Assembly (NCBI GenBank): GCA_041737175.1
Contig: JBGSSF010000023.1
Coordinates: 145,888 to 209,887 of the forward strand
Source: Bacteroidales bacterium
GTDB taxonomy: Bacteria > Bacteroidota > Bacteroidia > Bacteroidales > UBA10428
Direction of reading: 5' to 3'
Length of the DNA: 64,000 nt
Program-made: the position numbers and the translations under genes
Shown: one piece after another, positions 12,765 to 35,657 of the stretch
Numbering within the stretch: the stretch's first letter is position 1
Layout of the letters: the number at the start of each line of letters is the position of its first letter
Notes under the pieces: model-generated
Databases searched by the model: none
What the model was told of the DNA's origin: nothing
What the model saw: only the letters and a program-made list of their open reading frames with translations

Positions 12765-12777
12765 AAATCCGGTCCGT

Positions 12778-18004: not shown

Positions 18005-18868
18005 CTATTCTGAGAGCAGGACAATGGCAACAGAGGCAAGTATCAATCCTGTAAGTAAAATTCCGCCCGGAACAACGCCGTATATAATAAGGGAAAGTAT
18101 AACGGTAATAACTGGTGCCAGACCGGTCATAGGTACTACAAGAATTGCCTTTCCGTAACGCAATGCATATACCAGTGTCAAAGCGCCTATAGCATTAAGG
18201 ATCTGAATCATGGCAGCCAGCCAGGGACCTTTAAATCCCCAGTTTATAGGAATCGTAAAATCAGTCATTAACACGGCAACCGGTGTAAGCATGAGAGATG
18301 TTACGGCCATATAAAAATAAATGCTTTCAGCCCGCATGGTATTATTTGAAAATTTCAGCACATAAGCCTGAACAGCCCACATGATAAAAACAAGAATGGC
18401 CAATACAAGCCAGCCGATACCACTTGAACTGACAGTGTTATTCTGCGGATTTGACAAGAAAAACATGGCTACAATGGCAAGCGCGATTCCGATCCATTGA
18501 CGCAGGTGAGTGCGCTCTTTCAGGAAGATAATGGACAGTGCGATCGTAAGCACAGGATAAAGTGAAATTATCGGAAATACGATATAAGCCGGACCTTGCC
18601 GTAAAGCCTGAAACAGGAGGAGCTGTCCTCCTGCGCCAAGAAAACCGGCGGCTGAACCAAGAAATATGGATCGTTTATCATATTCAGGTTTCCAGTTTAG
18701 TTTATACAAGGCAAACAGGGCACACGGAATCATTGTTAAGGCCCATACCACATATCCCATGGTGGACGGGAAACCGGATTTCTCTGGAATTTCAATAAAG
18801 GCGCCCCACACGCCCCAAAAGGCAGTGGTGATCAAGGCATACATCAGCCAAAGACGATTTCCTTTCAT
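18005..18868 (-). CDS. EamA/DMT-superfamily inner-membrane transporter (possible sugar permease)
   Basis: 287 aa, about 10 hydrophobic segments, with the two-half organisation typical of DMT transporters. Substrate unknown. Confidence 0.7.
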   Translation of the reverse strand: MKGNRLWLMYALITTAFWGVWGAFIEIPEKSGFPSTMGYVVWALTMIPCALFALYKLNWKPEYDKRSIFLGSAAGFLGAGGQLLLFQALRQGPAYIVFPIISLYPVLTIALSIIFLKERTHLRQWIGIALAIVAMFFLSNPQNNTVSSSGIGWLVLAILVFIMWAVQAYVLKFSNNTMRAESIYFYMAVTSLMLTPVAVLMTDFTIPINWGFKGPWLAAMIQILNAIGALTLVYALRYGKAILVVPMTGLAPVITVILSLIIYGVVPGGILLTGLILASVAIVLLSE

Positions 18869-18980
18869 ATTGAAAAAATTGGTTTATGTTTCCAGACACA
18901 AATATAATTAATAAGCTTTCATAACTTATTTTAATTTAAAAAAAATATATCAAAAGATAATAATCAAATAAAATAATTTT

Positions 18981-18988
18981 TAATTTTG
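18981..18988 (+). promoter_or_regulatory. Candidate -7 box upstream of the SusC-like gene
   Basis: TAATTTTG matches TAnnTTTG, 78 nt upstream of the ATG at 19066, within a very AT-rich 197-nt gap. Confidence 0.35.
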
Positions 18989-19065
18989 TTTTAGTAATGA
19001 AATGAAAGTTATTTTTTGTCTTTTTGTTTTGTTTTCATGATGCTAAAACTATAACCTATTAATCT

Positions 19066-22032
19066 ATGAAAATGTTTTCTACCGGTTTTAGAAAAGTCTG
19101 GCTGTTCTTAGGCTTAATTACAGCTTACACCTTTGCCTACGGGCAAGTACCTGTTAAAGGAAGGGTTGTATCTGCGGAAGATAACCAGGGACTGCCTGGG
19201 GTAAACGTTTTAATCAAGGGCACAACCCAGGGCGTGGTGACTGGTCTGGACGGATCATACAACATTTCTGTCAGAAATGGCGCAGATGTTCTGGTGTTTA
19301 GTTCAATCGGTTACAACACCGAAGAAATCACAGTGGATAATCAATCTGTTATTGACGTGATTCTCGTTCCCGGGATCACCACGCTTGAAAGCGTTGTGGT
19401 CATGGGATACAGCTCCAAAAAGAGAAACGAGATTACCAGTGCGGTGACCACTGTTTCATCAGATAAGCTGATGGATGTTACATCGAACGACATTGGCACC
19501 ATGCTACAGGGAAAAGTGCCGGGGATCCAGGTCATCAACAGTTCAGGTACTCCGGGTGCTACACCGGATGTCCGCATCAGGGGTGTATCTTCTTTGAATG
19601 CCCCACAGGGTCCTTTGTATGTTGTTGACGGCATAATCGGAGGAAACTTTGATCCCAATGATGTGGAAACCATCACCGTGATGAAAGATGCCGGGGCAAC
19701 TGCCTTGTACGGTTCGCAGGCCAATGGTGGCGTTATTATCGTTACCACAAAAAAGGCAACTTCCGACAAGCCTCAGTTTGACATCAAGGCTGTTTCAGGC
19801 TTGCGCATGGCTGATCATGGTCATGTCAGAATGATGGATAGCAAGACCCTGTACAACTATCACCGGGAGTATTTTCGTGACCCCAACCTGTTTGTCATTG
19901 ATGACAGAAAGTTCATGGCAGCAAGGCCCATATCCATTCTGGATGTGAATACCAATTGGCTGGATGAATCTTTTGGTCCGGCCCTTGTGCAGAACTACTT
20001 CATGTCCTCGGCAGGAAAAGCCGGAAAACTCTCCTATTATATTGGTGCAAGTTATTACGATGAGGAAGGTACCTTTATCAATACCAATTATAAACGCATG
20101 AATGTCCGTGCCAATACCACTTATATGTTTTCCGACCGGGTATCGCTTACCAATAATATTAACCTGAGTGGTTCCAAAACGCGCGGAGCTGATTACATGA
20201 ATATATACTATGCATATACCAGTATGCCGTGGGACAATCCATATGACGAAAATGGGAATCCACGTAGTTTTAAGGAAGCCGAAGGAATCTGGTCGAAAGA
20301 CAAGATCAATCCTATACAGGCTGCCAATAACTCAGAACTGAGCAATGTTGGTTTTAACCTCGACTATGATCTTGACCTCAACATCAAATTGACCAATTGG
20401 TTGACTTTTGCATCAACTAATCGGCTAAGCGCCAATACTTTCATGGATAAACAATATTATTCAGCAGCGGCTGATAACCTGGCCTATTATGGAACCGGTT
20501 ATGTAAATTCAAGAAGTGATATAAATTACGGTGGAATCACAACCAACCTGCTTAAATTCCAATTTCAGGGGGTTGTTCACTCGTTAAGCGGATTGGTCGG
20601 ATTCGAGGCACAGGGCGATAATACGGATTATATCAGGGGTTCAGGAACCGGAATTCCGGAAGGATTGAAAGTACCTTCCGTGGCTTCGGGGCAATATACC
20701 ATTGCAGGGTCCCCCAACCGGTCGGTTATGCAGTCTCTCATATCACAGGTAAATTATATTTACAATAACAAATATTTTCTATCCGGTTCTTTCAGGGTGG
20801 ACCAGTCTTCGTCCTTCGCTGCTGCAAACCGGACTGCCACTTTCCCCAGTCTTTCTGCAGCCTGGAACATCAACAATGAGGATTTCATGCAAAAAATGAC
20901 TTACATCAATAATCTAAGACTCAAAGTAAGTTGGGGGAAAACCGGCATGAAGGATATCGGACCCTATATGTATCTCGAGCAGTTCAGCTACACTACCCAA
21001 TATGACGGAGAATCTGCATCGGTACCATACCAGATGGCAAATCCCGATCTGACATGGGAACAAACCAACCAGTTCAACGTTGGTGTCGAACTTGGCTTGT
21101 TTAAAAGGGTAGATATTGATTTTAACATCTATAAAAACATCACAAACGATCTGTTGGTTTATCGCGATCTGCCCCCATCGGGAGGTTTCAGAAAACAATG
21201 GCAGAATGTCGGGAAAGCAGAGAACAGCGGTGTTGAGCTGGGTCTGAATTCGACCAATATCAAAACGGCTAATTTCACCTGGACCACCGACTTTTCGATC
21301 GGATATAACAAGAACACACTTTCAGGTTTTGGCGGCGATACCATTTACAATGCCAATGCCTATGGAATTGTTCAGATCTATCACGACGGCGGTACTTTGT
21401 ATTCATGGTATGCCAAGGAATACTATGGCATTGACCCCGAAAATGGTTCAATGTTGTGGGTAGGCAGGGATGGCAATCCCACCCATGATTATCAGGAAGC
21501 CAGGAAGATTGAATATGGAAGCCCGATTCCCAAAATTCAGGGAGGTTTTGGAACCGAAATGAAATATAAGGGAATTTCCCTGAGGGCAAACTTCTCCTTC
21601 CTCACCGGTAATAAGATCTACAACTACTTCAGGAGATATGTAGATCATGATTTGCAGGATGTCGGATTCAATGTAATGATGCCCAGGGACGACTGGAAGA
21701 TATGGCAGCAGCCAGGTGACCAGGCAAATCATCCCCTGCCTCAGAATGCCAGTAATTCCTTTGATCCTTCTACACGATTTATCGAAGACGGAAGCTATTT
21801 AAAGATCCGTAACGTTACTCTCACCTATGAGCTTCCGGTTTCGGTAGTGTCCAAACTTAAACTAACCGGCTTATCGGTTTCCATTGGCGCTGATAACCTT
21901 TACACCTTCACCGATTTCTGGGGCCAGGATCCCGAAGTATCCATTAATCCCAACAACGGTTTACCGGGTTATGCAGAATTCAAATATCCCAACAATAAAC
22001 AGTATGTACTTGGCCTCCAGGTGCGATTCTAA
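19066..22032 (+). CDS. SusC/RagA-family TonB-dependent outer-membrane transporter
   Basis: 988 aa. It has a signal peptide, a CarboxypepD_reg segment (VKGRVVSAEDNQGLPGVNVLIKGTTQGVVTGLDGSYNISV), a Plug (IRGVSSLNAPQGPLYVVDG...) and a long barrel ending LGLQVRF. A SusD-like gene follows directly. Confidence 0.93.
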   Translation: MKMFSTGFRKVWLFLGLITAYTFAYGQVPVKGRVVSAEDNQGLPGVNVLIKGTTQGVVTGLDGSYNISVRNGADVLVFSSIGYNTEEITVDNQSVIDVILVPGITTLESVVVMGYSSKKRNEITSAVTTVSSDKLMDVTSNDIGTMLQGKVPGIQVINSSGTPGATPDVRIRGVSSLNAPQGPLYVVDGIIGGNFDPNDVETITVMKDAGATALYGSQANGGVIIVTTKKATSDKPQFDIKAVSGLRMADHGHVRMMDSKTLYNYHREYFRDPNLFVIDDRKFMAARPISILDVNTNWLDESFGPALVQNYFMSSAGKAGKLSYYIGASYYDEEGTFINTNYKRMNVRANTTYMFSDRVSLTNNINLSGSKTRGADYMNIYYAYTSMPWDNPYDENGNPRSFKEAEGIWSKDKINPIQAANNSELSNVGFNLDYDLDLNIKLTNWLTFASTNRLSANTFMDKQYYSAAADNLAYYGTGYVNSRSDINYGGITTNLLKFQFQGVVHSLSGLVGFEAQGDNTDYIRGSGTGIPEGLKVPSVASGQYTIAGSPNRSVMQSLISQVNYIYNNKYFLSGSFRVDQSSSFAAANRTATFPSLSAAWNINNEDFMQKMTYINNLRLKVSWGKTGMKDIGPYMYLEQFSYTTQYDGESASVPYQMANPDLTWEQTNQFNVGVELGLFKRVDIDFNIYKNITNDLLVYRDLPPSGGFRKQWQNVGKAENSGVELGLNSTNIKTANFTWTTDFSIGYNKNTLSGFGGDTIYNANAYGIVQIYHDGGTLYSWYAKEYYGIDPENGSMLWVGRDGNPTHDYQEARKIEYGSPIPKIQGGFGTEMKYKGISLRANFSFLTGNKIYNYFRRYVDHDLQDVGFNVMMPRDDWKIWQQPGDQANHPLPQNASNSFDPSTRFIEDGSYLKIRNVTLTYELPVSVVSKLKLTGLSVSIGADNLYTFTDFWGQDPEVSINPNNGLPGYAEFKYPNNKQYVLGLQVRF

Positions 22033-22051
22033 TCTTAATAAACAATTCAGT

Positions 22052-23599
22052 ATGAAAAAGGCACTTATATATATCATGTTCCTGTCAGGTTTCTTATACC
22101 TGTCAGGTTGTGAACTCGATGTCATCCCCAGTGATGCACTCACCGGTGATCAGATCACAAATACCTCCGACGGACTGGTCAGTCTGGTTAACGGATGCTA
22201 CGCCCAGTTCAAAGACTTTCCTGATGCGAACAGTTCCAACAACTGGTATCTGCGTCAATATTACCACCTGAGCGACTTTGCAAGTGATGATATCGCCTGC
22301 GGCTATAAAACCGAAGATGATCTCATCAACAGTTTCCGGTATAAGGACCGGGCATCTGAAAAGTCAAACATAAACAGCTTCTGGGAAGTATCCTATAAGA
22401 TCATCTACGGGGCAAATGTGGCCATTAAAATGGCAGATGAAAAAGGAAGTGATCCGATAACAGATCATTTGAAAGGAGAAAGCTACTTTCTGAGGGCCCT
22501 GGCAACTCATAATCTGGTTCGCCTGTTTGCCAAACCATATGCCCCTGCCAACCTGACATCACCCGGCGTAATCCTGCGCGAATCATCGACCGACGGGGCT
22601 CCCAAGGCCCGTGCATCCCTGAGTGAAACCTATGACTATATTGTTTCAAGTTTGAAAACTGCAGCTTCCCTGATGAATGAAGAAACACCCGAATCGAGGA
22701 ATACCAAAGGTTTTGCTACAAAATACGGCACATGGGCTCTTCTTTCGAGGGCATATTTATACATGGGAGATTACGAGAATACCATTGCCTATGCTGATTC
22801 GGTTATAAATTCAGGATACTTTTCGCTCGAACCGGCTGAATCATTCTCTGCCTATTTTGCTCAGGCCAAGTCATCTTCAGAAACCATCTGGTGTATTCCC
22901 TTTACAGTTACGGATGATAAAAAGGAAGCATCGGTAGCCTCCATGATTTTTAATGGCGCAAGTTGCTGGGGAGAAGAAGGTGCCTCACCTTCCCTGCTGG
23001 AGGAAATGGGATTCGGAACCGATATGATGCAGATTGACCAAAGGTGGGCTTTTATTGAAACTGCAAATCCGGGCTTGAAAAATGGCGTGAATATCTATTA
23101 CATCAACAAGTTCTCGGGACAGGATAATCTACCTACGCTCAGCTCTCCGGTAATGCTGAGGCTTGCAGAAGTATACCTGAACAGGGCAGAAGCCTTTGCC
23201 AAACTTCCCGGTCATTTGTCAGAATCACTGGACGACCTGAATGAGATCAGATCAAACAGAATGTTGGTACCTGATGGAGGTGATCTGAATGATTACTTAT
23301 ATGATGCTGCACGTGACAACATTACTGAGGAAAACCTGGTGGATGTTGTACTGAAAGAAAGAAGAATTGAACTGGCTTTTGAAGGACACCGGGTATTTGA
23401 TATCCTGCGTAACGGAAAGGACCTGGTAAGAAATTACTGGGGATTTCACCTTGATAGTTATAACGGAATCCCTACCGCCAGTGAACCCGGATTGACCTCT
23501 GCGGGAGTGGTGATTCAGGCAAGCGATCCCACAACGGTTTACCCTATGCCGTCGAGTGAGATCAGTACCAATAAACTCTGTGTTCCTAATAATTTTTAA
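22052..23599 (+). CDS. SusD/RagB-family nutrient-binding outer-membrane lipoprotein
   Basis: The track ORF starts at 21884 inside susC. The preferred start is the ATG at 22052 (MKKALIYIMFLSGFLYLSGC, lipobox Cys). SusD-like TPR segments are present (RAYLYMGDYENTIAYADSVI, LRLAEVYLNRAEA, ERRIELAFEGHRVFDILR). Confidence 0.9.
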   Translation: MKKALIYIMFLSGFLYLSGCELDVIPSDALTGDQITNTSDGLVSLVNGCYAQFKDFPDANSSNNWYLRQYYHLSDFASDDIACGYKTEDDLINSFRYKDRASEKSNINSFWEVSYKIIYGANVAIKMADEKGSDPITDHLKGESYFLRALATHNLVRLFAKPYAPANLTSPGVILRESSTDGAPKARASLSETYDYIVSSLKTAASLMNEETPESRNTKGFATKYGTWALLSRAYLYMGDYENTIAYADSVINSGYFSLEPAESFSAYFAQAKSSSETIWCIPFTVTDDKKEASVASMIFNGASCWGEEGASPSLLEEMGFGTDMMQIDQRWAFIETANPGLKNGVNIYYINKFSGQDNLPTLSSPVMLRLAEVYLNRAEAFAKLPGHLSESLDDLNEIRSNRMLVPDGGDLNDYLYDAARDNITEENLVDVVLKERRIELAFEGHRVFDILRNGKDLVRNYWGFHLDSYNGIPTASEPGLTSAGVVIQASDPTTVYPMPSSEISTNKLCVPNNF

Positions 23600-23611
23600 T
23601 TCATTGTTATC

Positions 23612-24502
23612 ATGAAAAGATACTGTAACAAACTATTATATTCAACTGCAGCGATGATTCTTATAGCGATTTCCTGCAGTAAGGAGGGAGAATATACCCT
23701 CACAGAAACGGCGCCACTCGACTTTAAAACGTATTATAACGGAATGGTCGTCACTTTTGTTAATAAAAGTACAGATGCCACCGACATTTTATGGGATTTT
23801 GGCGATGACAGTCCTGAAATTTCAGGTGATTCTGTTGTACATGCTTACGCTACGATCGGCAACTATATAATTTCCATGAACGGAACAGTTGGTGGCAGAC
23901 CTTATGTCTTTCATACGGTGTTAAAGGTTGATAAGGCCTCTGTGGTGAGCCTGACCGATGATTCCTTCGATGATTGGAACGGGGTAACCTATCCTGATTT
24001 TTTACTATCCGGTAAAGGTGCGATTGATACTGCAAAAGTTGATTATGATGCCAATTACGTGTATGTATATGTTGAATTCGACTCAATTGCAGAGAATGCT
24101 GGATTAATAGATCATATTTTCGGCGTTTACATGGATATTGACAATCTTGTCACAACCGGATTTTCAATGAAAGAAATGGGAGTTGATTATGGATGCGAAG
24201 GAAATCTTTATGGTGGATGGTTTGCTCCGAGCATAGTAGATTTAATTAATGGAGACCCCGGTTGGCCCTTTATGGGTTTTGAGAATGAAAATGCTATTAA
24301 ACCGGGCTATATTACTAAGGTAGACAATACCATAAAAATGGAATTTGGTATTTCAAGAGAAGTTTTTGCCATTAATTCTGATGCCATGTCTTTCTCAATG
24401 AGCATAATGAATTCTGACTGGTCGGATGTTGGAAATCTGGCTACTCCCCTACCGGATTTTAGTGAAAAGATTATTGTTATGATGAATAAGTCTGGCAAAT
24501 AA
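23612..24502 (+). CDS. PUL-associated surface lipoprotein with a PKD domain and an unrecognised C-terminal domain
   Basis: 296 aa. It has a lipoprotein signal (AMILIAISCSKE) and a PKD-like segment (VTFVNKSTDATDILWDFGDDSPEISGDSVVHAYATIGNYIISMNG). It occupies the SusE/F position. Confidence 0.7.
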   Translation: MKRYCNKLLYSTAAMILIAISCSKEGEYTLTETAPLDFKTYYNGMVVTFVNKSTDATDILWDFGDDSPEISGDSVVHAYATIGNYIISMNGTVGGRPYVFHTVLKVDKASVVSLTDDSFDDWNGVTYPDFLLSGKGAIDTAKVDYDANYVYVYVEFDSIAENAGLIDHIFGVYMDIDNLVTTGFSMKEMGVDYGCEGNLYGGWFAPSIVDLINGDPGWPFMGFENENAIKPGYITKVDNTIKMEFGISREVFAINSDAMSFSMSIMNSDWSDVGNLATPLPDFSEKIIVMMNKSGK

Positions 24503-24522
24503 CAAAGAAAATAATGTTAAAA

Positions 24523-24562
24523 AGAGGCTGTTACAGGTAATCATTACCTTTTGACAGCCTCT
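24523..24562. terminator. Long bidirectional hairpin between convergent genes
   Basis: AGAGGCTGT (24523-24531) pairs with ACAGCCTCT (24554-24562). An inner stem AGGTAA/TTACCT also forms. T-rich sequence follows. Confidence 0.65.
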
Positions 24563-24584
24563 TTTATTTAGGTAGTGAAAGAGC

Positions 24585-25382
24585 TCAGACGATGATCACC
24601 TCAATCCCCGCATCCACCAGCCGCTTTCTGTCCTCTTCGGGTATGCCACTGTCAGTAATTACCCGGTGAAGCTTTTCAATTCCGCAAATATAGGCCAGGC
24701 TTTTCCTGAGAAACTTACTGGAATCAGACACAATAATCACTTCCTTTGCGTTCCTGATCATGATTTCATTCAAAGAAGCCTCTTCAATATTAGGCGTATA
24801 AATTCCGTGGCGCGTATCAAATCCATCCACCCCTAAAAACGCTTTATCCACATAAAGGTTTTGAAAGTTTTTCTCTGCTAGGGGTCCCATCAGTGAAAGC
24901 GAATTCTTTCTGAGATAACCTCCCGGAATGATCAGGTTGAACCCGCGGCATTGCAATAGTTGGCTGGCAATATTCAGGGCGTTGGTAACTACGGTAACTT
25001 CCCTGAGATGTCCTATGTTTTTTGCAATTTCCATGGTGGTGGTCCCTGAATCAATGATCACCGTATCGCGCTCATTGATCAGTTGCGCTGCACGTTTTCC
25101 GATTCTTGCCTTTTCACTTGTATGCAATTTGTCTTTTTCCGAAATATGATGATCAATACCAACACCGCCTTCAGCCCTAAGCGCACCGCCACGAGCCCTG
25201 ATCAACATATTCTTCCGCTCCAGCTGATCGAGATCATTGCGGATGGTAACCTCACTGACATCAAATTCCTTGCTAAGTTCATGAACTAATACTTGTCCCT
25301 CCGTATTCAATGCATTCAGAATACCTTTTCTCCTTTCAACCGTTGAATTCCTTTTGCGTGCTTTCATAACTGCAATATTCAT
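24585..25382 (-). CDS. DeoR-family transcriptional repressor (AgaR/GlpR-like)
   Basis: 265 aa. It has an N-terminal HTH (VHELSKEFDVSEVTIRNDLDQLE) and a DeoR C-terminal sensor domain. It is divergent from the agaS operon. An alternative start is M6 at 25367. Confidence 0.9.
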   Translation of the reverse strand: MNIAVMKARKRNSTVERRKGILNALNTEGQVLVHELSKEFDVSEVTIRNDLDQLERKNMLIRARGGALRAEGGVGIDHHISEKDKLHTSEKARIGKRAAQLINERDTVIIDSGTTTMEIAKNIGHLREVTVVTNALNIASQLLQCRGFNLIIPGGYLRKNSLSLMGPLAEKNFQNLYVDKAFLGVDGFDTRHGIYTPNIEEASLNEIMIRNAKEVIIVSDSSKFLRKSLAYICGIEKLHRVITDSGIPEEDRKRLVDAGIEVIIV

Positions 25383-25426
25383 AAAATTTCTACAATTCTA
25401 AAATAAAGATAGTATTCCTTTCTTGA

Positions 25427-25532
25427 TTTCATAAGTATTATTACAAAAGAATTTAATCAAATTTTATTTTACCTTTCATTTACTTATATTTATTACATTT
25501 TAGCTTTCATATTATTTTTTTATTTGTTTCAT
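25427..25532. promoter_or_regulatory. Four direct TTTCATww repeats in the divergent DeoR/agaS intergenic region (candidate operators)
   Basis: TTTCAT occurs at 25427, 25474, 25505 and 25527. The extended contexts are gaTTTCATaagtatta, ccTTTCATttacttat, gcTTTCATattatttt and tgTTTCATaatattta. Confidence 0.35.
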
Positions 25533-25538
25533 AATATT

Positions 25539-25546
25539 TATATTTG
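25539..25546 (+). promoter_or_regulatory. Candidate -7 box for the agaS operon
   Basis: TATATTTG matches TAnnTTTG, 39 nt upstream of the ATG at 25585. Confidence 0.4.
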
Positions 25547-25584
25547 TTTTAATTATTACTATTAATAAATTGAATCTTTATCAA

Positions 25585-26742
25585 ATGCTCACGCTGGGTT
25601 ATGACAGGAAAGTTTTGAATGAAAAGGGAGCTTTTTACACAGCAAGTGAAATAGCATCGCAACCTTCCTTGTGGCTTAAAGTATATAGCAAATTGCTTGA
25701 GGGTAGTTGCAGCCTGAAAAAATTCATGCAGCTTGCCCTGGCCGAAGCCGATAAGATCGTGCTCACGGGTGCCGGAACCAGTGCATTCATTGGCTTGTCG
25801 CTCTACGGCGTATTCAGCAGAAAACTTGGAAAAAATACATTGGCAATAGCCACCACAGATCTCGTCACCCATCCCGGGGACTATTTTTTTGATCGGGAAA
25901 CTGTATTGCTGATATCTTTTGCACGGTCGGGCAATAGTCCTGAAAGCACCGCTGCAGTCGAACTTGCTGATAAGCTTTGTAAAAAATGCTATCATCTTAT
26001 CATCACCTGCAATGCAGAAGGCTACCTGGCACTTTTAACCTCTTCCTCTCCCAAATATATCATGGTACTTCCACCCGAATCGAATGACCAGAGTCTGGCA
26101 ATGACCGGAAGCTATTCGGGAATGTTGTTAAGCGGTTTATTGGCTGCCCATCTGCAAAAGATTGAGAAGCTCGAAGATAACATACGGTTGCTCAGTCAGT
26201 ATGGTACACGGATCCTTAATACCTATGCACCGATCCTGCAGAACATATCGGAAAAAGCATTTAAGAGAGCAGTCTTCCTGGGTTCAGGACCATTTTATGG
26301 TACTGCAACAGAATCTTCGCTGAAACTTCAGGAACTTACGGATGGCAGGATCATTTGCAAAAATGATACCTTCCTTGGACTCAGACACGGGCCAAAGGCA
26401 GTAGTGGATGAAAACACCCTGCTGTTTTTTATATTTTCAGGCAATCCTTATGTGCTCAGGTATGAAAAGGACCTTGTCACCTCAATGAGAAAAGGGAAAA
26501 AACCACTTTTCACAATCGGTTTGTCCGAAAGAGAAGTTGACGGATGCACCTTTGACCTGCCGATCCAATTATCCGGCAAAAGTAAAAAAACGGAAGATGA
26601 ATTTTTAACCATTTGCAGCATATTGCCGGGTCAGTTGCTGGGATTTTATAAATCACTGTCCCTGGGATTGAAACCGGATAATCCGTCAGTTAGCGGAGCC
26701 ATTTCCAGGGTTGTGGAAGATGTCAGAATTTATCAATATTAA
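25585..26742 (+). CDS. agaS: SIS-domain sugar-phosphate isomerase/deaminase, AgaS-like
   Basis: The track ORF begins at a TTG at 25570. The ATG at 25585 (MLTLGYDRKVLNEKGAFYTASEIASQPSLW) is preferred. It has a double SIS architecture (VLTGAGTSAFIG...; FLGSGPFYGTATESSLKLQELT) and a length of about 385 aa, as in AgaS. Confidence 0.75.
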   Translation: MLTLGYDRKVLNEKGAFYTASEIASQPSLWLKVYSKLLEGSCSLKKFMQLALAEADKIVLTGAGTSAFIGLSLYGVFSRKLGKNTLAIATTDLVTHPGDYFFDRETVLLISFARSGNSPESTAAVELADKLCKKCYHLIITCNAEGYLALLTSSSPKYIMVLPPESNDQSLAMTGSYSGMLLSGLLAAHLQKIEKLEDNIRLLSQYGTRILNTYAPILQNISEKAFKRAVFLGSGPFYGTATESSLKLQELTDGRIICKNDTFLGLRHGPKAVVDENTLLFFIFSGNPYVLRYEKDLVTSMRKGKKPLFTIGLSEREVDGCTFDLPIQLSGKSKKTEDEFLTICSILPGQLLGFYKSLSLGLKPDNPSVSGAISRVVEDVRIYQY

Positions 26743-26750
26743 CCCATCAA

Positions 26751-28016
26751 ATGAACATCCAATTAAGAGAAGCCGCCAAAGCAGCGGAAATTCCGCTTAT
26801 GGATTATCTTTTATCCGGGATCAGGAGACTGGAAATCGCTACCGGCGTGAAACGCACCATATTTGCAGCCTGTCCGAATTCAAATACAGTGATAAGGGCA
26901 GCACTAAAGTCGGCCAAGCGTAATAACGCCCCGATAAAATTTGCGGCCACACTGAATCAGGTTGATACAGACGGCGGTTATACCGGACTTACCCCGCGTG
27001 AATTTGTAAACACCATCCGTTTGCATGCGCGCAGTCTCCATATTGTCTCACCGGTTATCATTGCAGTTGACCATGGAGGTCCATGGCTTAAAGACATACA
27101 TTCGCGCAATCAATGGTCGTATAACGATACCATGGCTGCTGTCAAAAAATCTTTTGAAGCCGCCATAGAAGCTGGTTATGACCTGCTTCATGTAGATCCT
27201 ACGGTGGATATTACCTTGCCAAAAGGTAAAACCATTTCCATTGATCTGGTTGCCGATCGCACCCTTGAACTGATAGCCCATACGGAACATTTCCGGGTTA
27301 GTCACAACTATCCCCGCATAGCTTATGAAGTTGGTACCGAAGAGGTTCATGGAGGCCTGGCCGACCTGGATGTATTTAAACATTTCCTGGACAGGCTTAA
27401 AAGCGGACTTGAAAAGCTGGGCATGCCCGATGTATGGCCTTGCTTTGTAGTTGGCAAGGTGGGTACCGATCTGCATACCACCACATTTGATCCTCTCGTG
27501 GCCAGGCAACTGGTAGAGATTGCAAGGAATTATGGTAGCCTTATAAAAGGCCATTACTCCGACAACGTAACCAACCCCGAAGCATATCCCGAATCGGGTA
27601 TGGGCGCTGCCAATATAGGACCTGAATTTACGGAAATGGAATACCTGGCGCTGGTTGAACTGGAATTGATCCAGGATCAACTTGCCCGCGAAGGAAAGAT
27701 TGCCAAACCGGTTGCCATGATGAAAACTTTACAGGAAGCCGTGATACGGTCAGAACGCTGGCAAAAATGGCTCCATGAAAAGGAAAATCCCGTTGACTTT
27801 TTTGCCAATTCACCCGAACGGCAGGAGTGGCTGATCCGGACCTGCTGCCGGTACATTTGGGAAGATCCTCAGGTGGTATCGGGACGAACCAGGCTTTATC
27901 AAAACCTTACCATGCAGGGAATTGAGGCTTCATCCATCGTTGAATCAAAAATTGAGGGTGCCATGGATCGCTATTTTTACAAATTCAACCTGGCTGGCCT
28001 GAATGATTTGCTTTAA
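26751..28016 (+). CDS. agaZ: GatZ/KbaZ/AgaZ-family protein (tagatose-bisphosphate aldolase non-catalytic subunit / tagatose-6-P kinase-like)
   Basis: 421 aa. ACPNSNTVIRAALKSAKRNNAPIKFAATLNQVDTDGGYTGLTP is characteristic of the GatZ/KbaZ family. Confidence 0.8.
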   Translation: MNIQLREAAKAAEIPLMDYLLSGIRRLEIATGVKRTIFAACPNSNTVIRAALKSAKRNNAPIKFAATLNQVDTDGGYTGLTPREFVNTIRLHARSLHIVSPVIIAVDHGGPWLKDIHSRNQWSYNDTMAAVKKSFEAAIEAGYDLLHVDPTVDITLPKGKTISIDLVADRTLELIAHTEHFRVSHNYPRIAYEVGTEEVHGGLADLDVFKHFLDRLKSGLEKLGMPDVWPCFVVGKVGTDLHTTTFDPLVARQLVEIARNYGSLIKGHYSDNVTNPEAYPESGMGAANIGPEFTEMEYLALVELELIQDQLAREGKIAKPVAMMKTLQEAVIRSERWQKWLHEKENPVDFFANSPERQEWLIRTCCRYIWEDPQVVSGRTRLYQNLTMQGIEASSIVESKIEGAMDRYFYKFNLAGLNDLL

Positions 28017-28087
28017 AAAGATACGGCTTTGAATGGCCAAAAACGAAGAATTGCACCCTAACTTTATGACAGGTAAATTACAGTATC

Positions 28088-29044
28088 ATGAATAAGGACA
28101 CGCAGGAAACAGATGTAATCGTCGTTGGAGAATTAAATGTAGACATCATCCTCAATAAAATTGAAGGCTTCCCGGCCATTGGAAAGGAGATCCTTGCAGG
28201 TGCCATGGATGTCACCCTGGGAAGCTCATCCGCCATCTTTGCCAGCAACCTCAGTTCGCTTGATGTTGCCGTTGCCTTTATTGGCAAGGTTGGCCGTGAT
28301 AACTTTGCCCGGGTGGTCACTGACAGCCTGAGCAGAAAGAAGGTGGATACCAGTCATATCCTTACATCGGAATCTTTGAGCACCGGCGCAACCATCGTGC
28401 TCAATTACGAACAGGACCGTGCCAATATTACCTATCCGGGTGCCATGAACGAATTGTGCCTGGAGGATATAGATTTTCATCTGTTATCAAAAGCCCGCCA
28501 CATGCATTTATCATCCTGTTTTCTGCAACCCGGGATTCGCAAAGATCTTACAAACCTTTTCCGGAAGGCAAAAGAACTGGGGTTGACTACTTCCCTGGAT
28601 ACACAGTGGGATCCCGAAGAAAAATGGGATCTTCCCCTGCCTTACTTACTCCCTTACGTTGATATCTTCCTGCCCAATGCAACAGAATTACAATTGCTGA
28701 CCAGGAGCAACACCATTGAAGAAGGCCTCGGCAAACTCACACCTTTTGCCAGAACAATTGTTGTGAAAAATGGCAGTGAAGGTGCATTGGCCTGGGATGG
28801 AAAAGAAATCGTACTCCAGCCTGCTTTTCTGAATGATCCGGTGGTAGATTCCATCGGCGCAGGCGACAGTTTCAACGCGGGATTTGTTAAAGAGTTCATT
28901 GCCGGCAAGCCCTTGAAGAAATGCCTCGAAATGGCAGCATTAATGGGTGCTATTAACACTACCCGGGCAGGTGGTACCGGGGCCTTTGAACATACTGATC
29001 TGATCAGGTCCATTGCAGCAGAAAAATTTAACTATTTCCTTTAA
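28088..29044 (+). CDS. PfkB-family carbohydrate kinase
   Basis: 318 aa. It has an N-terminal GELNVDI-type motif and the C-terminal DSIGAGDSFNAGF (PfkB signature 2). Substrate not determinable. Confidence 0.85.
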   Translation: MNKDTQETDVIVVGELNVDIILNKIEGFPAIGKEILAGAMDVTLGSSSAIFASNLSSLDVAVAFIGKVGRDNFARVVTDSLSRKKVDTSHILTSESLSTGATIVLNYEQDRANITYPGAMNELCLEDIDFHLLSKARHMHLSSCFLQPGIRKDLTNLFRKAKELGLTTSLDTQWDPEEKWDLPLPYLLPYVDIFLPNATELQLLTRSNTIEEGLGKLTPFARTIVVKNGSEGALAWDGKEIVLQPAFLNDPVVDSIGAGDSFNAGFVKEFIAGKPLKKCLEMAALMGAINTTRAGGTGAFEHTDLIRSIAAEKFNYFL

Positions 29045-29047
29045 CCC

Positions 29048-29869
29048 ATGCTTATTCAGGAAAAGTTATTACAACTTAAACAAGAACGAAAAGCAGTTCT
29101 GGCAGCCAATTTTTACAATTTCGAAACACTGTCCGGAATCCTGCAGGCTTCAGCCCTGCTGAAAAAACCGGTAATCCTTCAACTGTCGGAAAGTTCCATC
29201 CGCTATTTGGGATTGGGTATTGCAAGTACCCTGGCAAAGAGTGCCCTGCGCGAATACGGGGTGGAAGGCTGGCTTCATCTTGACCACGGGAGTTCGGTGG
29301 AAATGATACAGCGTTGCCTCGACCAGGGATTTGATTCGGTGATGATTGATGCCAGTGAAAAATCTTTTGATGAAAATGTTCGGATCACAAGTCAGGTGGT
29401 AAAACTGGCTGCACCCTACAAGGTAATTGTTGAGGCTGAACTTGGTTTTGTTGCAAAACTCGGACAGGAACAGTCCAAGGGAGGATTTACAAGCCCTGAA
29501 GATGCAGCCCGGTTTGTAGCCGGCACGGGTGTTCATACCCTGGCCGTTGCCATTGGTTCGGCCCATGGCTTTTATAAACTGGCCCCAGATCTCGACATTG
29601 ACCTGCTCGCCCGGATCAGCAAAGTCACCCCGGTGCCCCTGGTACTTCACGGCAGCTCAGGTATCCCCGATAGCATGTTGCAGGATGCCATCCGTAACGG
29701 AATCTGTAAAATCAACCTGGCCACCGAAACTAAAAATGCTTTTATGCTTGCCCTGCAGGAAATCTTGAAGAACAACAGCGAAATCGACCTCCGGGTTGTG
29801 TTTCCAAAAGCTACCCAGGCAGTTATTGACCTCATTATTACCAAATTAAACGTAATTACTGGTATCTAG
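29048..29869 (+). CDS. kbaY: Class II ketose-bisphosphate aldolase (KbaY/GatY/FbaA family)
   Basis: 273 aa. LHLDHG, AIGSAHG and LVLHGSSG are metal- and phosphate-binding motifs of class II FBP/TBP aldolases. Confidence 0.8.
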   Translation: MLIQEKLLQLKQERKAVLAANFYNFETLSGILQASALLKKPVILQLSESSIRYLGLGIASTLAKSALREYGVEGWLHLDHGSSVEMIQRCLDQGFDSVMIDASEKSFDENVRITSQVVKLAAPYKVIVEAELGFVAKLGQEQSKGGFTSPEDAARFVAGTGVHTLAVAIGSAHGFYKLAPDLDIDLLARISKVTPVPLVLHGSSGIPDSMLQDAIRNGICKINLATETKNAFMLALQEILKNNSEIDLRVVFPKATQAVIDLIITKLNVITGI

Positions 29870-29872
29870 AAT

Positions 29873-30973
29873 ATGAAAATAAATCCGATTTCAATAAAGA
29901 CAGTCCGGACTGCTTTCATGCTGATCCTTTGGCAGGCTTTTACCCTGTCGGCAATTTCCCAGGACGCTGAAAATCTACTGTTGAAGAACTATCGACCGCA
30001 ATCGATCTACAATATACCCGTAACGCAAATAGATCGTGCTTCTTTTCCGGTAATCGACATACATTCACATCCTTATGCCCTTGGACCTAAAGAAATCGAT
30101 CGATGGGTTGAAATGATGGATTCATGCGGTATACAAAAAACAATTATTCTAACCATGGCCACCGGAGCTAAATTTGATTCTATTGTAAATACCTATGCCG
30201 GGCATAAAAGGCGCTTTGACCTCTGGTGCGGCTTTGATTATTCAGGATACGATTTACCTGGTTTTCCTGCCTCTGCAGTAAAGGAGTTGGAACGCTGTTA
30301 TCATATGGGGGCAAAGGGCGTCGGAGAATTGGGTGATAAGGGATTGGGCGAGATATACTCCGAACCGGTTGCAGGTAAAGGTATGCACATTGACGATCCC
30401 AGGATGAAACCCTTATTTGAAAAATGCGCCGAATTAAAAATGCCCGTGAACATCCATGTGGGTGATCCCGTTTGGATGTATGAAAAGATGGACTCCACTA
30501 ACGACGGCCTGATGAATGCACTAACATGGCGCATTGACATGAATATACCGGGGATACTCGATTTACAGGAACTGGTTAAAACCCTGGAAAACACCTTAAG
30601 AGAAAATCCTAAAACCATGTTTATTGCCTGTCATTATGCCAACCTTACGCACGATCTTGGACAGCTTGGAAAACTCCTGGAAAAGTATCCCAACCTCTAT
30701 GCTGATATATCAGCCCGTTACGCCGAAACAGCAACGATCCCAAGATATATGAAAGTTTTCATTGAAAGGTATCAGGACAGGCTGTTATATGGAACCGATA
30801 TGGGATATCAATCCTCCATGTACCGAACAACCTTCCGAATACTGGAGTCAACCGATGAACATTTTTATGAAATCGAACTCTTTGGTTATCATTGGCCGCT
30901 TCACGGATTCGGACTTTCTCCTGTTGTACTGAAGAAACTTTATAATCAAAATGCTGCACTCTTATTGAAATAA
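29873..30973 (+). CDS. Signal-peptide-bearing metal-dependent amidohydrolase-fold protein
   Basis: 366 aa. It has an N-terminal signal (FMLILWQAFTLSAISQD), VIDIHSHP (HxH metal motif) and a TIM-barrel-like pattern. The subfamily is not resolved by eye. Confidence 0.65.
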   Translation: MKINPISIKTVRTAFMLILWQAFTLSAISQDAENLLLKNYRPQSIYNIPVTQIDRASFPVIDIHSHPYALGPKEIDRWVEMMDSCGIQKTIILTMATGAKFDSIVNTYAGHKRRFDLWCGFDYSGYDLPGFPASAVKELERCYHMGAKGVGELGDKGLGEIYSEPVAGKGMHIDDPRMKPLFEKCAELKMPVNIHVGDPVWMYEKMDSTNDGLMNALTWRIDMNIPGILDLQELVKTLENTLRENPKTMFIACHYANLTHDLGQLGKLLEKYPNLYADISARYAETATIPRYMKVFIERYQDRLLYGTDMGYQSSMYRTTFRILESTDEHFYEIELFGYHWPLHGFGLSPVVLKKLYNQNAALLLK

Positions 30974-30995
30974 ATGCTTATGTACCCATAGAACC

Positions 30996-33053
30996 ATGAA
31001 ATCAACTCCTCTGGTTATTAATGCCTTGCTGGGCCTGGCCCTTGTCTCCTGCAGCAATACCACCCGCATAGAAAGCGGAAAACTGCGGCTTGAAATCAAC
31101 AACAAAATGGAAACAAAGGTAAACTGCGTTTCTTCTGATACAAAACAGCTTATGAAGCATTTCATGGCTTCGGAATACTTGGTATGTCGCAAATTCGAAG
31201 CCAGTGACTTTAAAGTGAAAAAAAGCAAAACCACGGCCATTGACGATAATAAAGGCAAGGGTGAAAGTACTGTTATTTCGGGTACAACCAGAAATGAGGA
31301 ATATGGCCTTGAAAAGATACTCACAATTTCGGTCTATAACTCCTTCCCCGGTATGGCCTTTTTTAAGGTTCAGTATGTAAATACGGGAAAGCGTGACCTG
31401 GAAATCAGCAAATGGGTGAATCATGGTTATACCATACTGGATAATGGGGATTCTCCTGCTTTTTGGTCATTTCAGGGAAGTTCGACCGGAGCACGAAAAG
31501 ACTGGATGCTCCCGGTGGATTCATCATTTTCACAGCAGAATTATATGGGAATGAACAATACCGATTACGGAGGGGGTATTCCTGTTGTTGATCTATGGCG
31601 CAAAGATGCCGGCATCGCAATTGGTCACACCGATCAGGTGGCCCGTATGATTTCACTGCCTGTGCATAAAAGCCGTTATGACAATTTCACACAGATAAGC
31701 ATGGAATATGAATATCCGGAAACTATCACCCTTCGTGCACAAGATACCCTGAATACCTTCAATACCTTTGTCATGGTTCACAATGGTGACTGTTATGCCC
31801 CGTTACAGGCTTATTCAAAATATATGCAGGCGACAGGCACAACCATGGTGCCGGTTGAAGAAGATGCCTATGAGGCAGTCTGGTGCGCCTGGGGATATAT
31901 GCGTAAATTCACAGTGGATGAAATTTTGGGAACACTTCCCAAGGTGAAGGAATTGGGACTGAAATGGGTAGATATTGATGACGGTTACCAGCAAGCTGAA
32001 GGAGACTGGGATGTTGTACTTACAAAATTCCCCCGGGGCAGTGCCGATATGCGAAAACTGGTCGACCGTATTCATGCGATGGGTCTGAAGGCAAAACTGT
32101 GGTGGGCTCCGCTTGCCGTGGATCCGGGAAGCAAGTTACTGACCCTGAATCCCGATATCATCTTGGAAACAAGCGACGGGGCACCACAATTCATCACGTG
32201 GTGGGACAGCTATTATATGTCACCGGTTTATGAGAAGACCCTTGACCATACACGCGGAGTGCTGAAAATGTTTCTAAAGGACTGGGATTTTGACGGACTT
32301 AAAATGGATGGACAGCACCTCAATTGCTTACCCCCCGATTACAACGGCCGTCATGCACTTGAAAATCCGGAGGTGTCTTTTGAAAACCTGCCCCATTTCT
32401 ACCAGATGATCTATGAAACTGCCCGGATTTACAAACCTCATGCGGTATTGCAGATATGCCCCTGCGGCTGCGCCATGTCGTTCTTTAACATGCCCTGGAC
32501 GAATCAAACTGTAGCCTCTGATCCTGTATCGAGCTGGCAAACGCGTTTGAAGGGAAAAACTTATAAAGCACTTCTTGGTAAAACTGCCTATTATGGTGAC
32601 CATGTTGAATTGAGCGACGGAGGAAATGACTTTGCCAGCCAAATTGGCATTGGAGCTGTTTTGGGTACCAAGTTCACATGGCCAAAAGACAATCCCTATG
32701 TCACCGAAGGGCACTTCGTGCTTACTCCCGAGAAAGAGAAAGTATGGAAACACTGGATAAAAGTCTATAACCAAAAAATGCTGTCAAAAGAAACGTATCT
32801 TGGTTCACTGTACGACATTGGCTATGACAAGCCTGAAACACATGTAATACAAAAGGCAGATACCTTGTTTTATGCTTTTTATGATCCCGACTGGAAGGGC
32901 GAAATTGAATTGCGGGGTTTGGGCAACGGTAACTACAGGGTTGTCGACTACGTTCATGAAAAGGAGTTGGGCACAGTAAATGCAGCCAATCCTAAATTTT
33001 CGGTCTCATTCAAACAATACCTGCTGATTGAAGCTTATAAAATAACCAAATGA
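30996..33053 (+). CDS. Lipoprotein glycoside hydrolase, clan GH-D-like (alpha-galactosidase / alpha-N-acetylgalactosaminidase-like TIM barrel)
   Basis: 685 aa. It has a lipoprotein signal (LLGLALVSCSN), LKWVDIDDGYQ and GLKMDGQH, which resemble the melibiase-type catalytic region. The family call is tentative. Confidence 0.55.
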   Translation: MKSTPLVINALLGLALVSCSNTTRIESGKLRLEINNKMETKVNCVSSDTKQLMKHFMASEYLVCRKFEASDFKVKKSKTTAIDDNKGKGESTVISGTTRNEEYGLEKILTISVYNSFPGMAFFKVQYVNTGKRDLEISKWVNHGYTILDNGDSPAFWSFQGSSTGARKDWMLPVDSSFSQQNYMGMNNTDYGGGIPVVDLWRKDAGIAIGHTDQVARMISLPVHKSRYDNFTQISMEYEYPETITLRAQDTLNTFNTFVMVHNGDCYAPLQAYSKYMQATGTTMVPVEEDAYEAVWCAWGYMRKFTVDEILGTLPKVKELGLKWVDIDDGYQQAEGDWDVVLTKFPRGSADMRKLVDRIHAMGLKAKLWWAPLAVDPGSKLLTLNPDIILETSDGAPQFITWWDSYYMSPVYEKTLDHTRGVLKMFLKDWDFDGLKMDGQHLNCLPPDYNGRHALENPEVSFENLPHFYQMIYETARIYKPHAVLQICPCGCAMSFFNMPWTNQTVASDPVSSWQTRLKGKTYKALLGKTAYYGDHVELSDGGNDFASQIGIGAVLGTKFTWPKDNPYVTEGHFVLTPEKEKVWKHWIKVYNQKMLSKETYLGSLYDIGYDKPETHVIQKADTLFYAFYDPDWKGEIELRGLGNGNYRVVDYVHEKELGTVNAANPKFSVSFKQYLLIEAYKITK

Positions 33054-33796: not shown

Positions 33797-33891
33797 TGCA
33801 TTCCGGATTTGGAGGGTTCAGGCTGTAAATATAAAAAAAAGGCTGATATGTGATACTTCACAATGAATGTCCGAACGGTACTCTTTTAAAT

Positions 33892-35412: not shown

Positions 35413-35438
35413 AGATTTAAATATTATGCCAGTCTATC

Positions 35439-35606: not shown

Positions 35607-35657
35607 TCCGTTTTTCTAAAAGTTTAATATCCGTAAGCAAATATAGTACGAAAATCA

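Follow-up and report, generated by a model that had tools for sequence, protein, structure and literature searches.

A candidate polysaccharide utilization locus for alpha-galactosamine-containing glycans in a Bacteroidales bacterium

In E. coli, galactosamine (GalN) and N-acetylgalactosamine (GalNAc) are catabolized by the aga/gam system, which depends on uptake by a phosphotransferase system (PTS) and on the cytoplasmic AgaA, and tagatose-6-phosphate is phosphorylated by a housekeeping phosphofructokinase. A different route is represented by the FpGalNAcDeAc/FpGalNase pair of Flavonifractor plautii, reportedly described by Rahfeld et al. in 2019. FpGalNase is an alpha-galactosaminidase of glycoside hydrolase (GH) family 36 that cuts galactosamine from the blood-group A antigen once FpGalNAcDeAc has deacetylated it (PMC11762096; PMC10981661). 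The cluster of Shewanella has a permease and a kinase in place of the PTS, and a TonB-dependent outer-membrane transporter (PMC2996990; PMC12118421). When gut genomes were surveyed, only Actinobacteria, Firmicutes and Proteobacteria turned out to have the aga pathway (PMC5583593), and a 2025 review of entry routes gives only the PTS or AgaP/AgaK (PMC12118421). Here we describe a locus on a 64,000-nucleotide stretch of a Bacteroidales genome (GenBank assembly GCA_041737175.1, contig JBGSSF010000023.1, positions 145,888 to 209,887; hereafter the window), in which a SusC/SusD pair and an exported glycosidase are linked to genes for AgaR, AgaS, a GatZ-like protein, a PfkB-family kinase and a class II aldolase. 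On balance we read it as a polysaccharide utilization locus (PUL) for glycans that bear alpha-linked GalNAc or GalN, which would follow a deacetylate-then-cleave route of the F. plautii type. A preliminary description of the same DNA had seen a SusC/SusD locus for a GalN- or GalNAc-containing glycan, coupled to a DeoR-controlled branch of AgaS, GatZ-like protein and aldolase, and had regarded the pathway as lacking its first kinase and its deacetylase. The former view is supported by the present analysis. The latter is not, since the glycosidase is nearest to FpGalNase, whose operon has the same apparent gaps.

Pfam assigns the two exported hydrolases, encoded at 30996..33053 and 29873..30973, to the Melibiase/GH36 type and to Amidohydro_2 (PF04909), respectively. 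The Melibiase domain of the glycosidase scores 40.7 bits (cut-off 27), and its only close relatives in the PDB are the FpGalNase entries 8x1b, 9awt and 9ayu, which match residues 97-684 with 221-226 bits (E 1e-64 to 1e-66); the next match has 60 bits. The two enzymes are 31% identical over 559 aligned positions. For FpGalNase, W317, D346, D347, W387, K461, D463, C513 and D532 are reported as conserved or essential, and mutagenesis showed a need for C513, for the acid/base D532 and for the nucleophile, an Asp within a K-x-D motif (PMC11762096). In the window enzyme the aligned counterparts are W299 (W317), D328 (D346), D329 (D347), W369 (W387), K436-x-D438 (K461-G-D463), C490 (C513) and D509 (D532), and these residues, together with C488, are invariant in 69/69 family members. 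The aligners placed the nucleophile two residues off; the K-x-D motif itself is intact. The relation is reciprocal: with FpGalNase as query against 5.8 billion proteins, its own Oscillospiraceae clade came first (54-100% identity), plus a few partial, cut matches, and the first matches outside this clade (31-34% identity, 583-692 aa) were mostly of about 685 aa and so comparable in length to the window enzyme. FpGalNase is its closest characterized relative. Judged from these alignments, the window glycosidase is predicted to be an exo-alpha-galactosaminidase.

The F. plautii operon (contig L073) encodes a GntR regulator, a NagK-like BadF/BadG kinase, a 345-aa SIS protein (GlmD/GlmS-C-like), a 772-aa protein and FpGalNase, followed by a GH4 alpha-galactosidase, a GPH symporter, GatZ (518 bits on agaZ_gatZ) and a class II aldolase. 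The 772-aa protein has Big_2 and F5/8-type-C domains and matches PDB 6n1a/6n1b (1123 bits), which we take to be the FpGalNAcDeAc entries. No NagA/AgaA and no PfkB/LacC were found in this operon, and a relative with 70% identity has the same layout. From the operon content, the sugar that enters the cytoplasm of F. plautii is presumably free GalN. Since the operon has one free-hexosamine-type kinase, no NagA/AgaA and no LacC, the apparent gaps in the window are normal for a route in which GalN enters the cell. In both organisms the gene for the GH36-type enzyme is preceded by a hydrolase gene and accompanied by one sugar kinase, a SIS protein of the aminosugar-phosphate deaminase type, a transporter, GatZ and a class II aldolase, and in the proposed model they share the same logic of deacetylating outside the cell, releasing GalN and catabolizing it. 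The parts differ, however. The deacetylases are unrelated (a 772-aa CBM32 protein in F. plautii, an exported PF04909 amidohydrolase in the window), the kinase is of the NagK-like BadF/BadG family instead of PfkB, the transporter is GPH/MFS instead of EamA and the regulator GntR instead of AgaR. The F. plautii SIS protein and GatZ are only 24% and 23% identical to their window counterparts; the Gram-positive F. plautii has a GH4 gene, no SusC/SusD, and the blood-group A antigen as its known substrate. In our reading, the window locus recasts the route of deacetylase, galactosaminidase and aga pathway in the PUL format of a diderm, using non-orthologous parts. The F. plautii operon may in part have been described before. 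Phage-integrase genes flank this operon and its relative with 70% identity (L073:874-2978 and L075:20184-21560), and it may be carried on a mobile element.

A scan of one genome per species gave 71 loci that encode a relative of the window glycosidase. Linkage was scored within 10 kb of this gene by tblastn and clustering; the counts, listed in the table below, are lower bounds, many contigs being short. The core of the locus is retained, to varying extent, in these 71 loci, which bears out the neighborhood conservation that the preliminary description proposed to examine. This gene set occurs in the same order in dozens of genomes at 45-83% protein identity, and the open reading frames (ORFs) are therefore real genes and not chance. 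The gene order of the window is also that of GCA_040961665.1, whose proteins are 93% identical. Carriers are Bacteroidales, Lentimicrobiaceae, Tannerellaceae, Puia, Cyclobacteriaceae, Ignavibacteria, Calditrichia, KSB1 and marine Gammaproteobacteria, mostly from environmental sources, with some rumen metagenome-assembled genomes (MAGs). No NagA-type family was recurrent near the 71 loci. One locus on a contig labelled as a Methanosarcina MAG (L055, PMJC01000004.1) has Bacteroidota-type SusC, SusD, PfkB, aldolase, amidohydrolase, glycosidase and EamA; this contig is almost certainly mis-binned. In a Calditrichia genome (L070, OZ245730.1, 3321-12013) the order is SIS, PfkB, GatZ-like, EamA, amidohydrolase and glycosidase, and the SIS protein is only 28% identical to AgaS; as in F. 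plautii, the deaminase may here belong to another subfamily.

The marine gammaproteobacterial loci (Colwellia, Paraglaciecola, Aliiglaciecola, Shewanella sp. SG41-4, Pseudoalteromonas, Teredinibacter) share with the window EamA (about 50% identity), the amidohydrolase (about 26%), the glycosidase (about 45%), AgaS (about 40%) and AgaR (about 41%), but have a plain TonB-dependent receptor, a NagK-like BadF/BadG kinase, a canonical AgaZ (596 bits) and no linked aldolase. In one of them (L041) the glycosidase region contains a thioredoxin-like lipoprotein and AgaR, then divergent canonical AgaZ, AgaS and NagK-like kinase; its amidohydrolase is an Amidohydro_2 lipoprotein and its kinase is 36% identical to that of F. 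plautii. The characterized GalNAc cluster of Shewanella, with its ROK AgaK, Amidohydro_1 AgaAII, MFS AgaP and Gfo/Idh/MocA AgaO, is built differently (PMC2996990). A gene for a thioredoxin/AhpC-like lipoprotein lies directly downstream of the glycosidase in 13 gammaproteobacterial loci (L032, L034, L040, L041, L043, L047, L049-L052, L062, L066, L071) and overlaps the glycosidase stop in L041 (12033-12569). The glycosidase family has the invariant active-site cysteines C488-x-C490-G, and the substitution C513A nearly inactivates FpGalNase (PMC11762096). These thiols may be kept in the reduced state by a periplasmic reductase.

The only amidohydrolase of the window is the PF04909 protein (69 bits), and it differs from AgaA and NagA, which are cytoplasmic members of Amidohydro_1 (PF01979). 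As the preliminary description had suspected, it is exported. Among the 48 homologues examined, every full-length one has a signal peptide or a lipobox (two are cut or have none), which rules out that the signal peptide is an artefact of start-codon choice. The signal is of the signal peptidase I type in Bacteroidota and a lipobox in Gammaproteobacteria. D62, H64, H66, H195, H254, D278 and D309 are invariant in 47/47 sequences and, from the alignment, correspond to the full metal site of the amidohydrolase superfamily. The family has at least 5991 homologues, none with a functional name, and a sequence search of the PDB gave no match. The gene lies directly upstream of the glycosidase in 30 of the 45 loci that have both. 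Neither the window nor any of the 71 loci gave a tblastn match to the 772-aa FpGalNAcDeAc-type protein of F. plautii. Because the PF04909 protein is exported and takes the slot of FpGalNAcDeAc in F. plautii, because none of the loci has a homologue of FpGalNAcDeAc or NagA, and because the AgaS pathway needs GalNAc to be deacetylated somewhere, the protein is probably an extracytoplasmic GalNAc de-N-acetylase. An identification with Shewanella AgaAII was considered and rejected, as AgaAII is an Amidohydro_1 paralogue of NagA (PMC2996990).

The first cytoplasmic step would require a galactosamine kinase. No ROK or BadF/BadG kinase and no NagA/AgaA-type deacetylase is encoded across the 64-kb window, and the preliminary description had considered an unlinked initial kinase. 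The NCBIfam models closest to the PfkB protein, with 99-118 bits, are those of IolC, ribokinase and tagatose kinase, and the best PDB match of the protein is YdjH. On the LacC/1-PFK subfamily model TIGR03168 it scores 48.2 bits, far below the cut-off of 216.4, and it does not belong to that subfamily. Among the 36 AgaS-containing loci, PfkB is present in 24 and a NagK-like BadF/BadG kinase in 11, which are gammaproteobacterial; one locus has neither and none has both. The NagK-like kinase stands in place of PfkB in these 11 loci (it occurs in 13 overall) and in F. plautii. Since PfkB replaces the NagK-like kinase, never occurs alongside it and is not of the LacC/1-PFK type, we read it as the initial GalN kinase. 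The simplest reading of one kinase per locus from two swapped families, one of them that of the free-hexosamine kinases, is that both catalyze the same step, GalN to GalN-6-phosphate (GalN-6-P). The window enzyme is therefore predicted to be a galactosamine 6-kinase, and possibly has a dual role, acting also on tagatose-6-phosphate.

The SIS protein groups with AgaS and not with FrlB, GlmS or GmhA, in agreement with the preliminary description. Its best family is TIGR02815 (agaS_fam, 346 bits, below the cut-off of 529), compared with 80 bits on GlmD and 48 bits on GlmS, and the AgaS of the canonical gammaproteobacterial cluster also stays below this cut-off with 484 bits. Its top three PDB matches are of the AgaS type (3odp, 290 bits; E. 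coli AgaS 3c3j, 223 bits), and a GlmD-type structure reaches 66 bits. Of the two possible AgaS starts, 25570 and 25585, the ATG at 25585 agrees with the gene call in the close relative L072, where the protein has 385 aa. By homology, the window protein is a predicted galactosamine-6-phosphate deaminase/isomerase that yields tagatose-6-phosphate. The GatZ-like protein is more divergent. It matches PF08013 with 112 bits, but scores 87.6 bits on agaZ_gatZ (TIGR02810, cut-off 568.8) and 88.5 bits on KbaZ (cut-off 707), so that it falls outside both equivalogs. It is 23% identical to the canonical gammaproteobacterial AgaZ, with 42 shared invariant positions that include D107, H108, H147, D149, E197, H268 and D271. 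The aldolase scores 270 bits on F_bP_aldolase, 231 bits on TIGR00167 (cut-off 216) and 233 bits on the GatY model; it shares 37% identity with its counterpart in the FpGalNase operon and is predicted to cleave tagatose-1,6-bisphosphate. AgaS-containing loci vary in whether they have a GatZ-like protein and an aldolase (16), a GatZ-like protein alone (15) or an aldolase alone (5), and the GatZ-like protein is therefore predicted to be an aldolase partner, a tagatose-6-phosphate kinase or a 4-epimerase. The rumen MAG loci L042, L048, L057, L064 and L065 have kept AgaS, GatZ-like protein, PfkB, glycosidase and SusCD, and have no aldolase and no exported amidohydrolase; some rumen loci add GH109 and alkaline phosphatase. 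The fate of tagatose-6-phosphate may thus be GatZ-only in these genomes, and GalNAc may be handled in another way.

The window also has the hallmarks of a Sus-like PUL. SusC and SusD are adjacent, and the GH36-like lipoprotein provides a linked carbohydrate-active enzyme, a linkage seen in 23-29 related loci. SusC scores 709.8 bits on TIGR04056 (cut-off 368) and has the SusC signature, Plug and beta-barrel domains. The true start of SusD is near 22052 and not at the TTG at 21884, as its N-terminus MKKALIYIMFLSGFLYLSGC holds the lipobox. The PKD lipoprotein gene follows SusD in 25 related loci, and from this position its product is probably a SusE/F-like surface glycan-binding protein. The EamA/DMT permease, whose linked orthologues are 44-78% identical (about 50% in marine Gammaproteobacteria), is a candidate galactosamine importer; it was compared with Shewanella AgaP and this identification was rejected, as AgaP is a protein of the major facilitator superfamily (MFS) (PMC2996990). 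Like other Bacteroidota Sus-like PULs, the locus has adjacent SusC and SusD with a surface lipoprotein behind them, and its glycosidase is a lipoprotein. Unlike the usual ones, it has a DeoR-type AgaR as its predicted regulator instead of a hybrid two-component system, SusR or an extracytoplasmic function (ECF)/anti-sigma pair, it includes a full cytoplasmic monosaccharide pathway, and it has a single glycosidase and no endo-acting enzyme. The lower pathway resembles the E. coli aga/gam and Shewanella clusters, with AgaR, AgaS and an AgaZ/KbaZ-type protein with a class II aldolase; unlike the window, Shewanella has the ROK kinase AgaK, the cytoplasmic AgaAII, AgaP and the Gfo/Idh/MocA lipoprotein AgaO (PMC2996990). 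Our search of the open-access literature yielded no report of AgaS/GatZ/PfkB wiring of a PUL in Bacteroidota, as the preliminary description had expected, and none of a PUL dedicated to alpha-GalN glycans.

The DeoR-family regulator passes the AgaR equivalog NF040755 (288.3 bits, cut-off 260) and is divergent from AgaS in the window and in about 20 loci. Each of the two divergent promoter regions has three copies of CTTTCAT, at 18862, 18916 and 19002(-) near EamA/SusC (span 18862-19008) and at 25361, 25473 and 25504 near AgaR/AgaS (span 25361-25510), the latter with additional TTTCAT variants. Across the window the motif was observed 23 times against 15 expected, and only the local clustering is notable; across loci CTTTCA occurs at 0.29 per 100 bp in the AgaR/AgaS spacer versus 0.11 in other spacers, a weak conservation. 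The repeats are suggestive of AgaR operators, and EamA and SusCD may then be co-regulated with the operon. An assignment of CTTTCAT as an established AgaR operator was set aside, given window counts near chance and the weak conservation across loci.

Putting these genes together, we propose the following route. SusC/SusD and the PKD lipoprotein would bind and import the oligosaccharide, and the exported amidohydrolase would strip the N-acetyl group extracytoplasmically, either on terminal alpha-GalNAc or on released GalNAc. The GH36-like lipoprotein would free galactosamine, which the EamA/DMT permease would move across the inner membrane and PfkB would convert to GalN-6-P. AgaS would then deaminate and isomerize GalN-6-P to tagatose-6-phosphate. 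The next phosphorylation would fall to a housekeeping phosphofructokinase, the arrangement of E. coli, or perhaps to PfkB, and the class II aldolase with its GatZ-like partner would split the product into dihydroxyacetone phosphate and glyceraldehyde-3-phosphate. AgaR would repress both divergent promoters until a pathway intermediate appears. What the sequences show is the gene identities, the export signals, the conserved catalytic residues, the linkage across phyla and the parallel with the F. plautii operon; from these we infer all substrates and activities of the scheme, its natural glycan and the sequence of its kinase steps. An amino-sugar substrate is suggested by the linkage to AgaS, and an alpha-GalN linkage by the relationship to FpGalNase.

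Several observations weigh against this scheme. At 31% sequence identity to FpGalNase the glycosidase could prefer Gal or GalNAc, and FpGalNase Y464 is not conserved in its family. A fold search with the AF2 model of the amidohydrolase (pLDDT 74) retrieved only generic superfamily members at TM scores of about 0.5, first among them 3irs, 3nur, LigW2, LigJ, uronate isomerase and uncharacterized proteins, and reached NagA structures only from about rank 29. To our knowledge, characterized PF04909 members are decarboxylases, lactonases and hydratases, not deacetylases. Likewise, we know of no PfkB-family galactosamine kinase, and no paper on such an enzyme was found in the open-access literature. 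AgaS, GatZ and aldolase matches are all below the NCBIfam equivalog cut-offs. The module is not uniform either, as rumen loci are without the amidohydrolase and some loci without the GatZ-like protein or the aldolase. Finally, no endo-acting enzyme was found in the window, so the identity of the polymer has to be judged from other genomes.

These points leave room for other readings. The catabolic half could be as proposed and the exported enzymes different, with the glycosidase an alpha-galactosidase or alpha-N-acetylgalactosaminidase and the PF04909 protein a lactonase, esterase or deacylase for another substituent. The known PF04909 chemistry, which is not amide hydrolysis, the outcome of the fold search, the distance to FpGalNase and the label 'alpha-galactosidase' that sources give to relatives all fit this. 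Yet the AgaS linkage in 36 loci argues for an amino-sugar product and not galactose, GalNAc residues could not enter the AgaS pathway without a deacetylase, and the amidohydrolase, with its full hydrolytic metal site, mostly takes the place directly upstream of the glycosidase that the deacetylase has in F. plautii; we therefore regard this reading as improbable. Nor do we expect, though we give it some weight as an unlikely option, that GalNAc itself enters the cell, that an unlinked kinase and NagA/AgaA give GalN-6-P and that PfkB is the tagatose-6-phosphate kinase of an incomplete upper pathway. LacC is a PfkB-family enzyme, the aldolase gene starts 3 bp after PfkB as in the lacC-lacD order, alpha-N-acetylgalactosaminidases of GH109 occur in 6 related loci, and our view is limited to the window, with the rest of the genome outside it. 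However, the PfkB protein scores far better on free-sugar kinase models than on LacC/1-PFK, in Gammaproteobacteria and in F. plautii the locus has a single kinase, NagK-like and of the hexosamine type, that PfkB never accompanies, rumen loci retain PfkB without an aldolase, no NagA-type gene recurs near the loci, and the nearest characterized relative of the glycosidase acts on GalN and not on GalNAc.

The preliminary description had also raised a ketosamine route, in which PfkB and the SIS protein would act as FrlD and FrlB on an Amadori-type compound; together with the feeding of free tagatose, we consider this very improbable. PfkB does match the models for fructoselysine 6-kinase and tagatose kinase, but only weakly, its 84 and 99 bits being far under the cut-offs of 247 and 420, the SIS protein is clearly AgaS-type with no FrlB match, the regulator passes the AgaR model, and the glycosidase and comparative context point to GalN. 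The FrlB/FrlD version was rejected on the profile evidence. Our preferred reading thus remains a deacetylate-then-cleave PUL for alpha-GalNAc/GalN-bearing glycans.

As for the natural glycan, a microbial alpha-GalN/GalNAc polymer seems to fit better than the host A antigen, because most carriers are environmental, because about 21 loci add DUF4874+DUF4832 proteins and six add GH109, and because DUF4832 genes and a DUF4832 hydrolase are tied to Pel. Pel is a partly deacetylated alpha-1,4 GalNAc/GalN polymer (PMC9135694) and Gram-positive pel operons are accompanied by DUF4832 genes (PMC7112168). The DUF4832-containing hydrolase SIR_1591 of S. intermedius disrupts aggregates of alpha-1,4-GalNAc-rich Pel (PMC12345266); the homology of the locus proteins to it extends to the shared Pfam domain only. 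The proteins of the roughly 21/71 loci are secreted by the type IX secretion system (T9SS) (e.g. L058:8240-9958, L021:5880-9056, L037:19231-20592) and are candidate endo-acting enzymes of the related loci; known galactosaminidases for Pel-type polymers are endo-acting and belong to GH114, GH135, GH166 and GH191 (PMC12054363). We tentatively suggest a Pel- or galactosaminogalactan-type alpha-1,4-GalN/GalNAc exopolysaccharide as natural substrate, a possibility in which our confidence is limited. A DUF4832 protein is absent from the window and, since there is no endo-enzyme, the window locus may take up oligosaccharides released by other enzymes or organisms. Three more exported families of about 510 aa recur in 11-15 loci each, U11 (L023:5198-6727), U16 (L013:17999-19516) and U17 (L017:3413-4957), which match nothing in Pfam, NCBIfam or the PDB; a twin-arginine signal is present in U17, and U16 has a T9SS tail and faint similarity to U17 and the DUF4832 proteins. 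DUF4874/DUF4832, U11 and U17 gave no PDB sequence matches with profiles included.

The features of the locus, called from the ORF layout and from Pfam and NCBIfam scans of the window, agree with the gene map of the preliminary description, all genes named there being present at their positions.

Table. Features of the candidate galactosamine locus in window coordinates, with the number of the 71 related loci that have a linked member of the same family.
Feature	Position	Strand	Basis	Linked loci (of 71)
EamA/DMT inner-membrane permease	18005-18868	-	Pfam EamA, 99 bits	33
EamA/SusC divergent promoter region, three CTTTCAT repeats	18869-19065		motif positions	
SusC/RagA TonB-dependent outer-membrane transporter	19066-22032	+	TIGR04056, SusC signature, Plug, beta-barrel	29
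SusD-family lipoprotein, glycan binding	22052-23599	+	Pfam SusD_RagB + SusD-like_3, lipobox LSGC	23
PKD-domain lipoprotein	23612-24502	+	Pfam PKD, lipobox AISC	25
AgaR, DeoR-family repressor	24585-25382	-	NCBIfam NF040755	33
AgaR/AgaS divergent promoter region, CTTTCAT repeats	25383-25584		motif positions	
AgaS-family SIS protein	25585-26742	+	TIGR02815, PDB matches	36
Divergent GatZ/KbaZ-family protein	26751-28016	+	Pfam PF08013	34
PfkB-family sugar kinase	28088-29044	+	NCBIfam models, PDB YdjH	28
Class II ketose-bisphosphate aldolase	29048-29869	+	Pfam F_bP_aldolase, TIGR00167	24
Exported metal-dependent amidohydrolase (PF04909)	29873-30973	+	Pfam Amidohydro_2, signal peptide	45
Lipoprotein GH36-like glycosidase, 685 aa	30996-33053	+	Pfam Melibiase, lipobox LVSC	

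The plus-strand operon from AgaS to the glycosidase (25585-33053) has intergenic gaps of 8, 71, 3, 3 and 22 bp. Outside the locus the window encodes housekeeping functions (ribosomal proteins, EF-G, RpoD, glycogen branching enzyme, trp operon), and an Rfam scan of the whole window found no RNA element. After the operon, on the minus strand, 33098-36599 encodes a rhomboid protease, an amine-oxidase/phytoene-desaturase-like flavoprotein and a second EamA permease; this synteny is retained in the closest relatives only (L001, L072), so these genes are probably outside the system. A second TonB-dependent receptor-like gene (CarboxypepD_reg and Plug) at 11682-15441(-), with a DUF4249 partner replacing SusD and a TPR neighbor, appears unrelated to the galactosamine locus. 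A 1179-aa protein with CotH kinase, lamin-tail and CHB_HEX_C domains and a probable T9SS tail is encoded at 45765-49304(-), in the stretch of highest GC content in the window (0.53). Gram-positive pel operons, too, have CotH among their accessory genes, and the overlap may be coincidence.

Pel and galactosaminogalactan are major biofilm matrix polymers, for which our search of the open-access literature gave endo-acting hydrolases only (GH114, GH135, GH166, GH191) and no complete system of uptake and catabolism. The furthest-reaching interpretation is that the locus and its relatives form a phylogenetically wide, unrecognized catabolic system for cationic alpha-1,4-GalN/GalNAc biofilm exopolysaccharides such as these, with four new specificities: a PF04909 de-N-acetylase that would effectively be a new carbohydrate-esterase family, a GH36 exo-alpha-galactosaminidase branch, a PfkB galactosamine 6-kinase and a DMT galactosamine permease. 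We consider it doubtful that all of this holds. Still, the locus is a testable candidate for the consumption of alpha-GalN/GalNAc in sediments, soils, rumen and sea. At several points in it, uncharacterized proteins stand in for enzymes of the blood group A-to-O pathway of gut bacteria, and a second, unrelated deacetylase candidate and the large family of FpGalNase relatives could broaden the set of enzymes for A-to-O conversion of blood and organs. If our reading is true, GalN catabolism would extend to Bacteroidota, where the gut survey found no aga pathway (PMC5583593), by way of a new kinase and a new permease.

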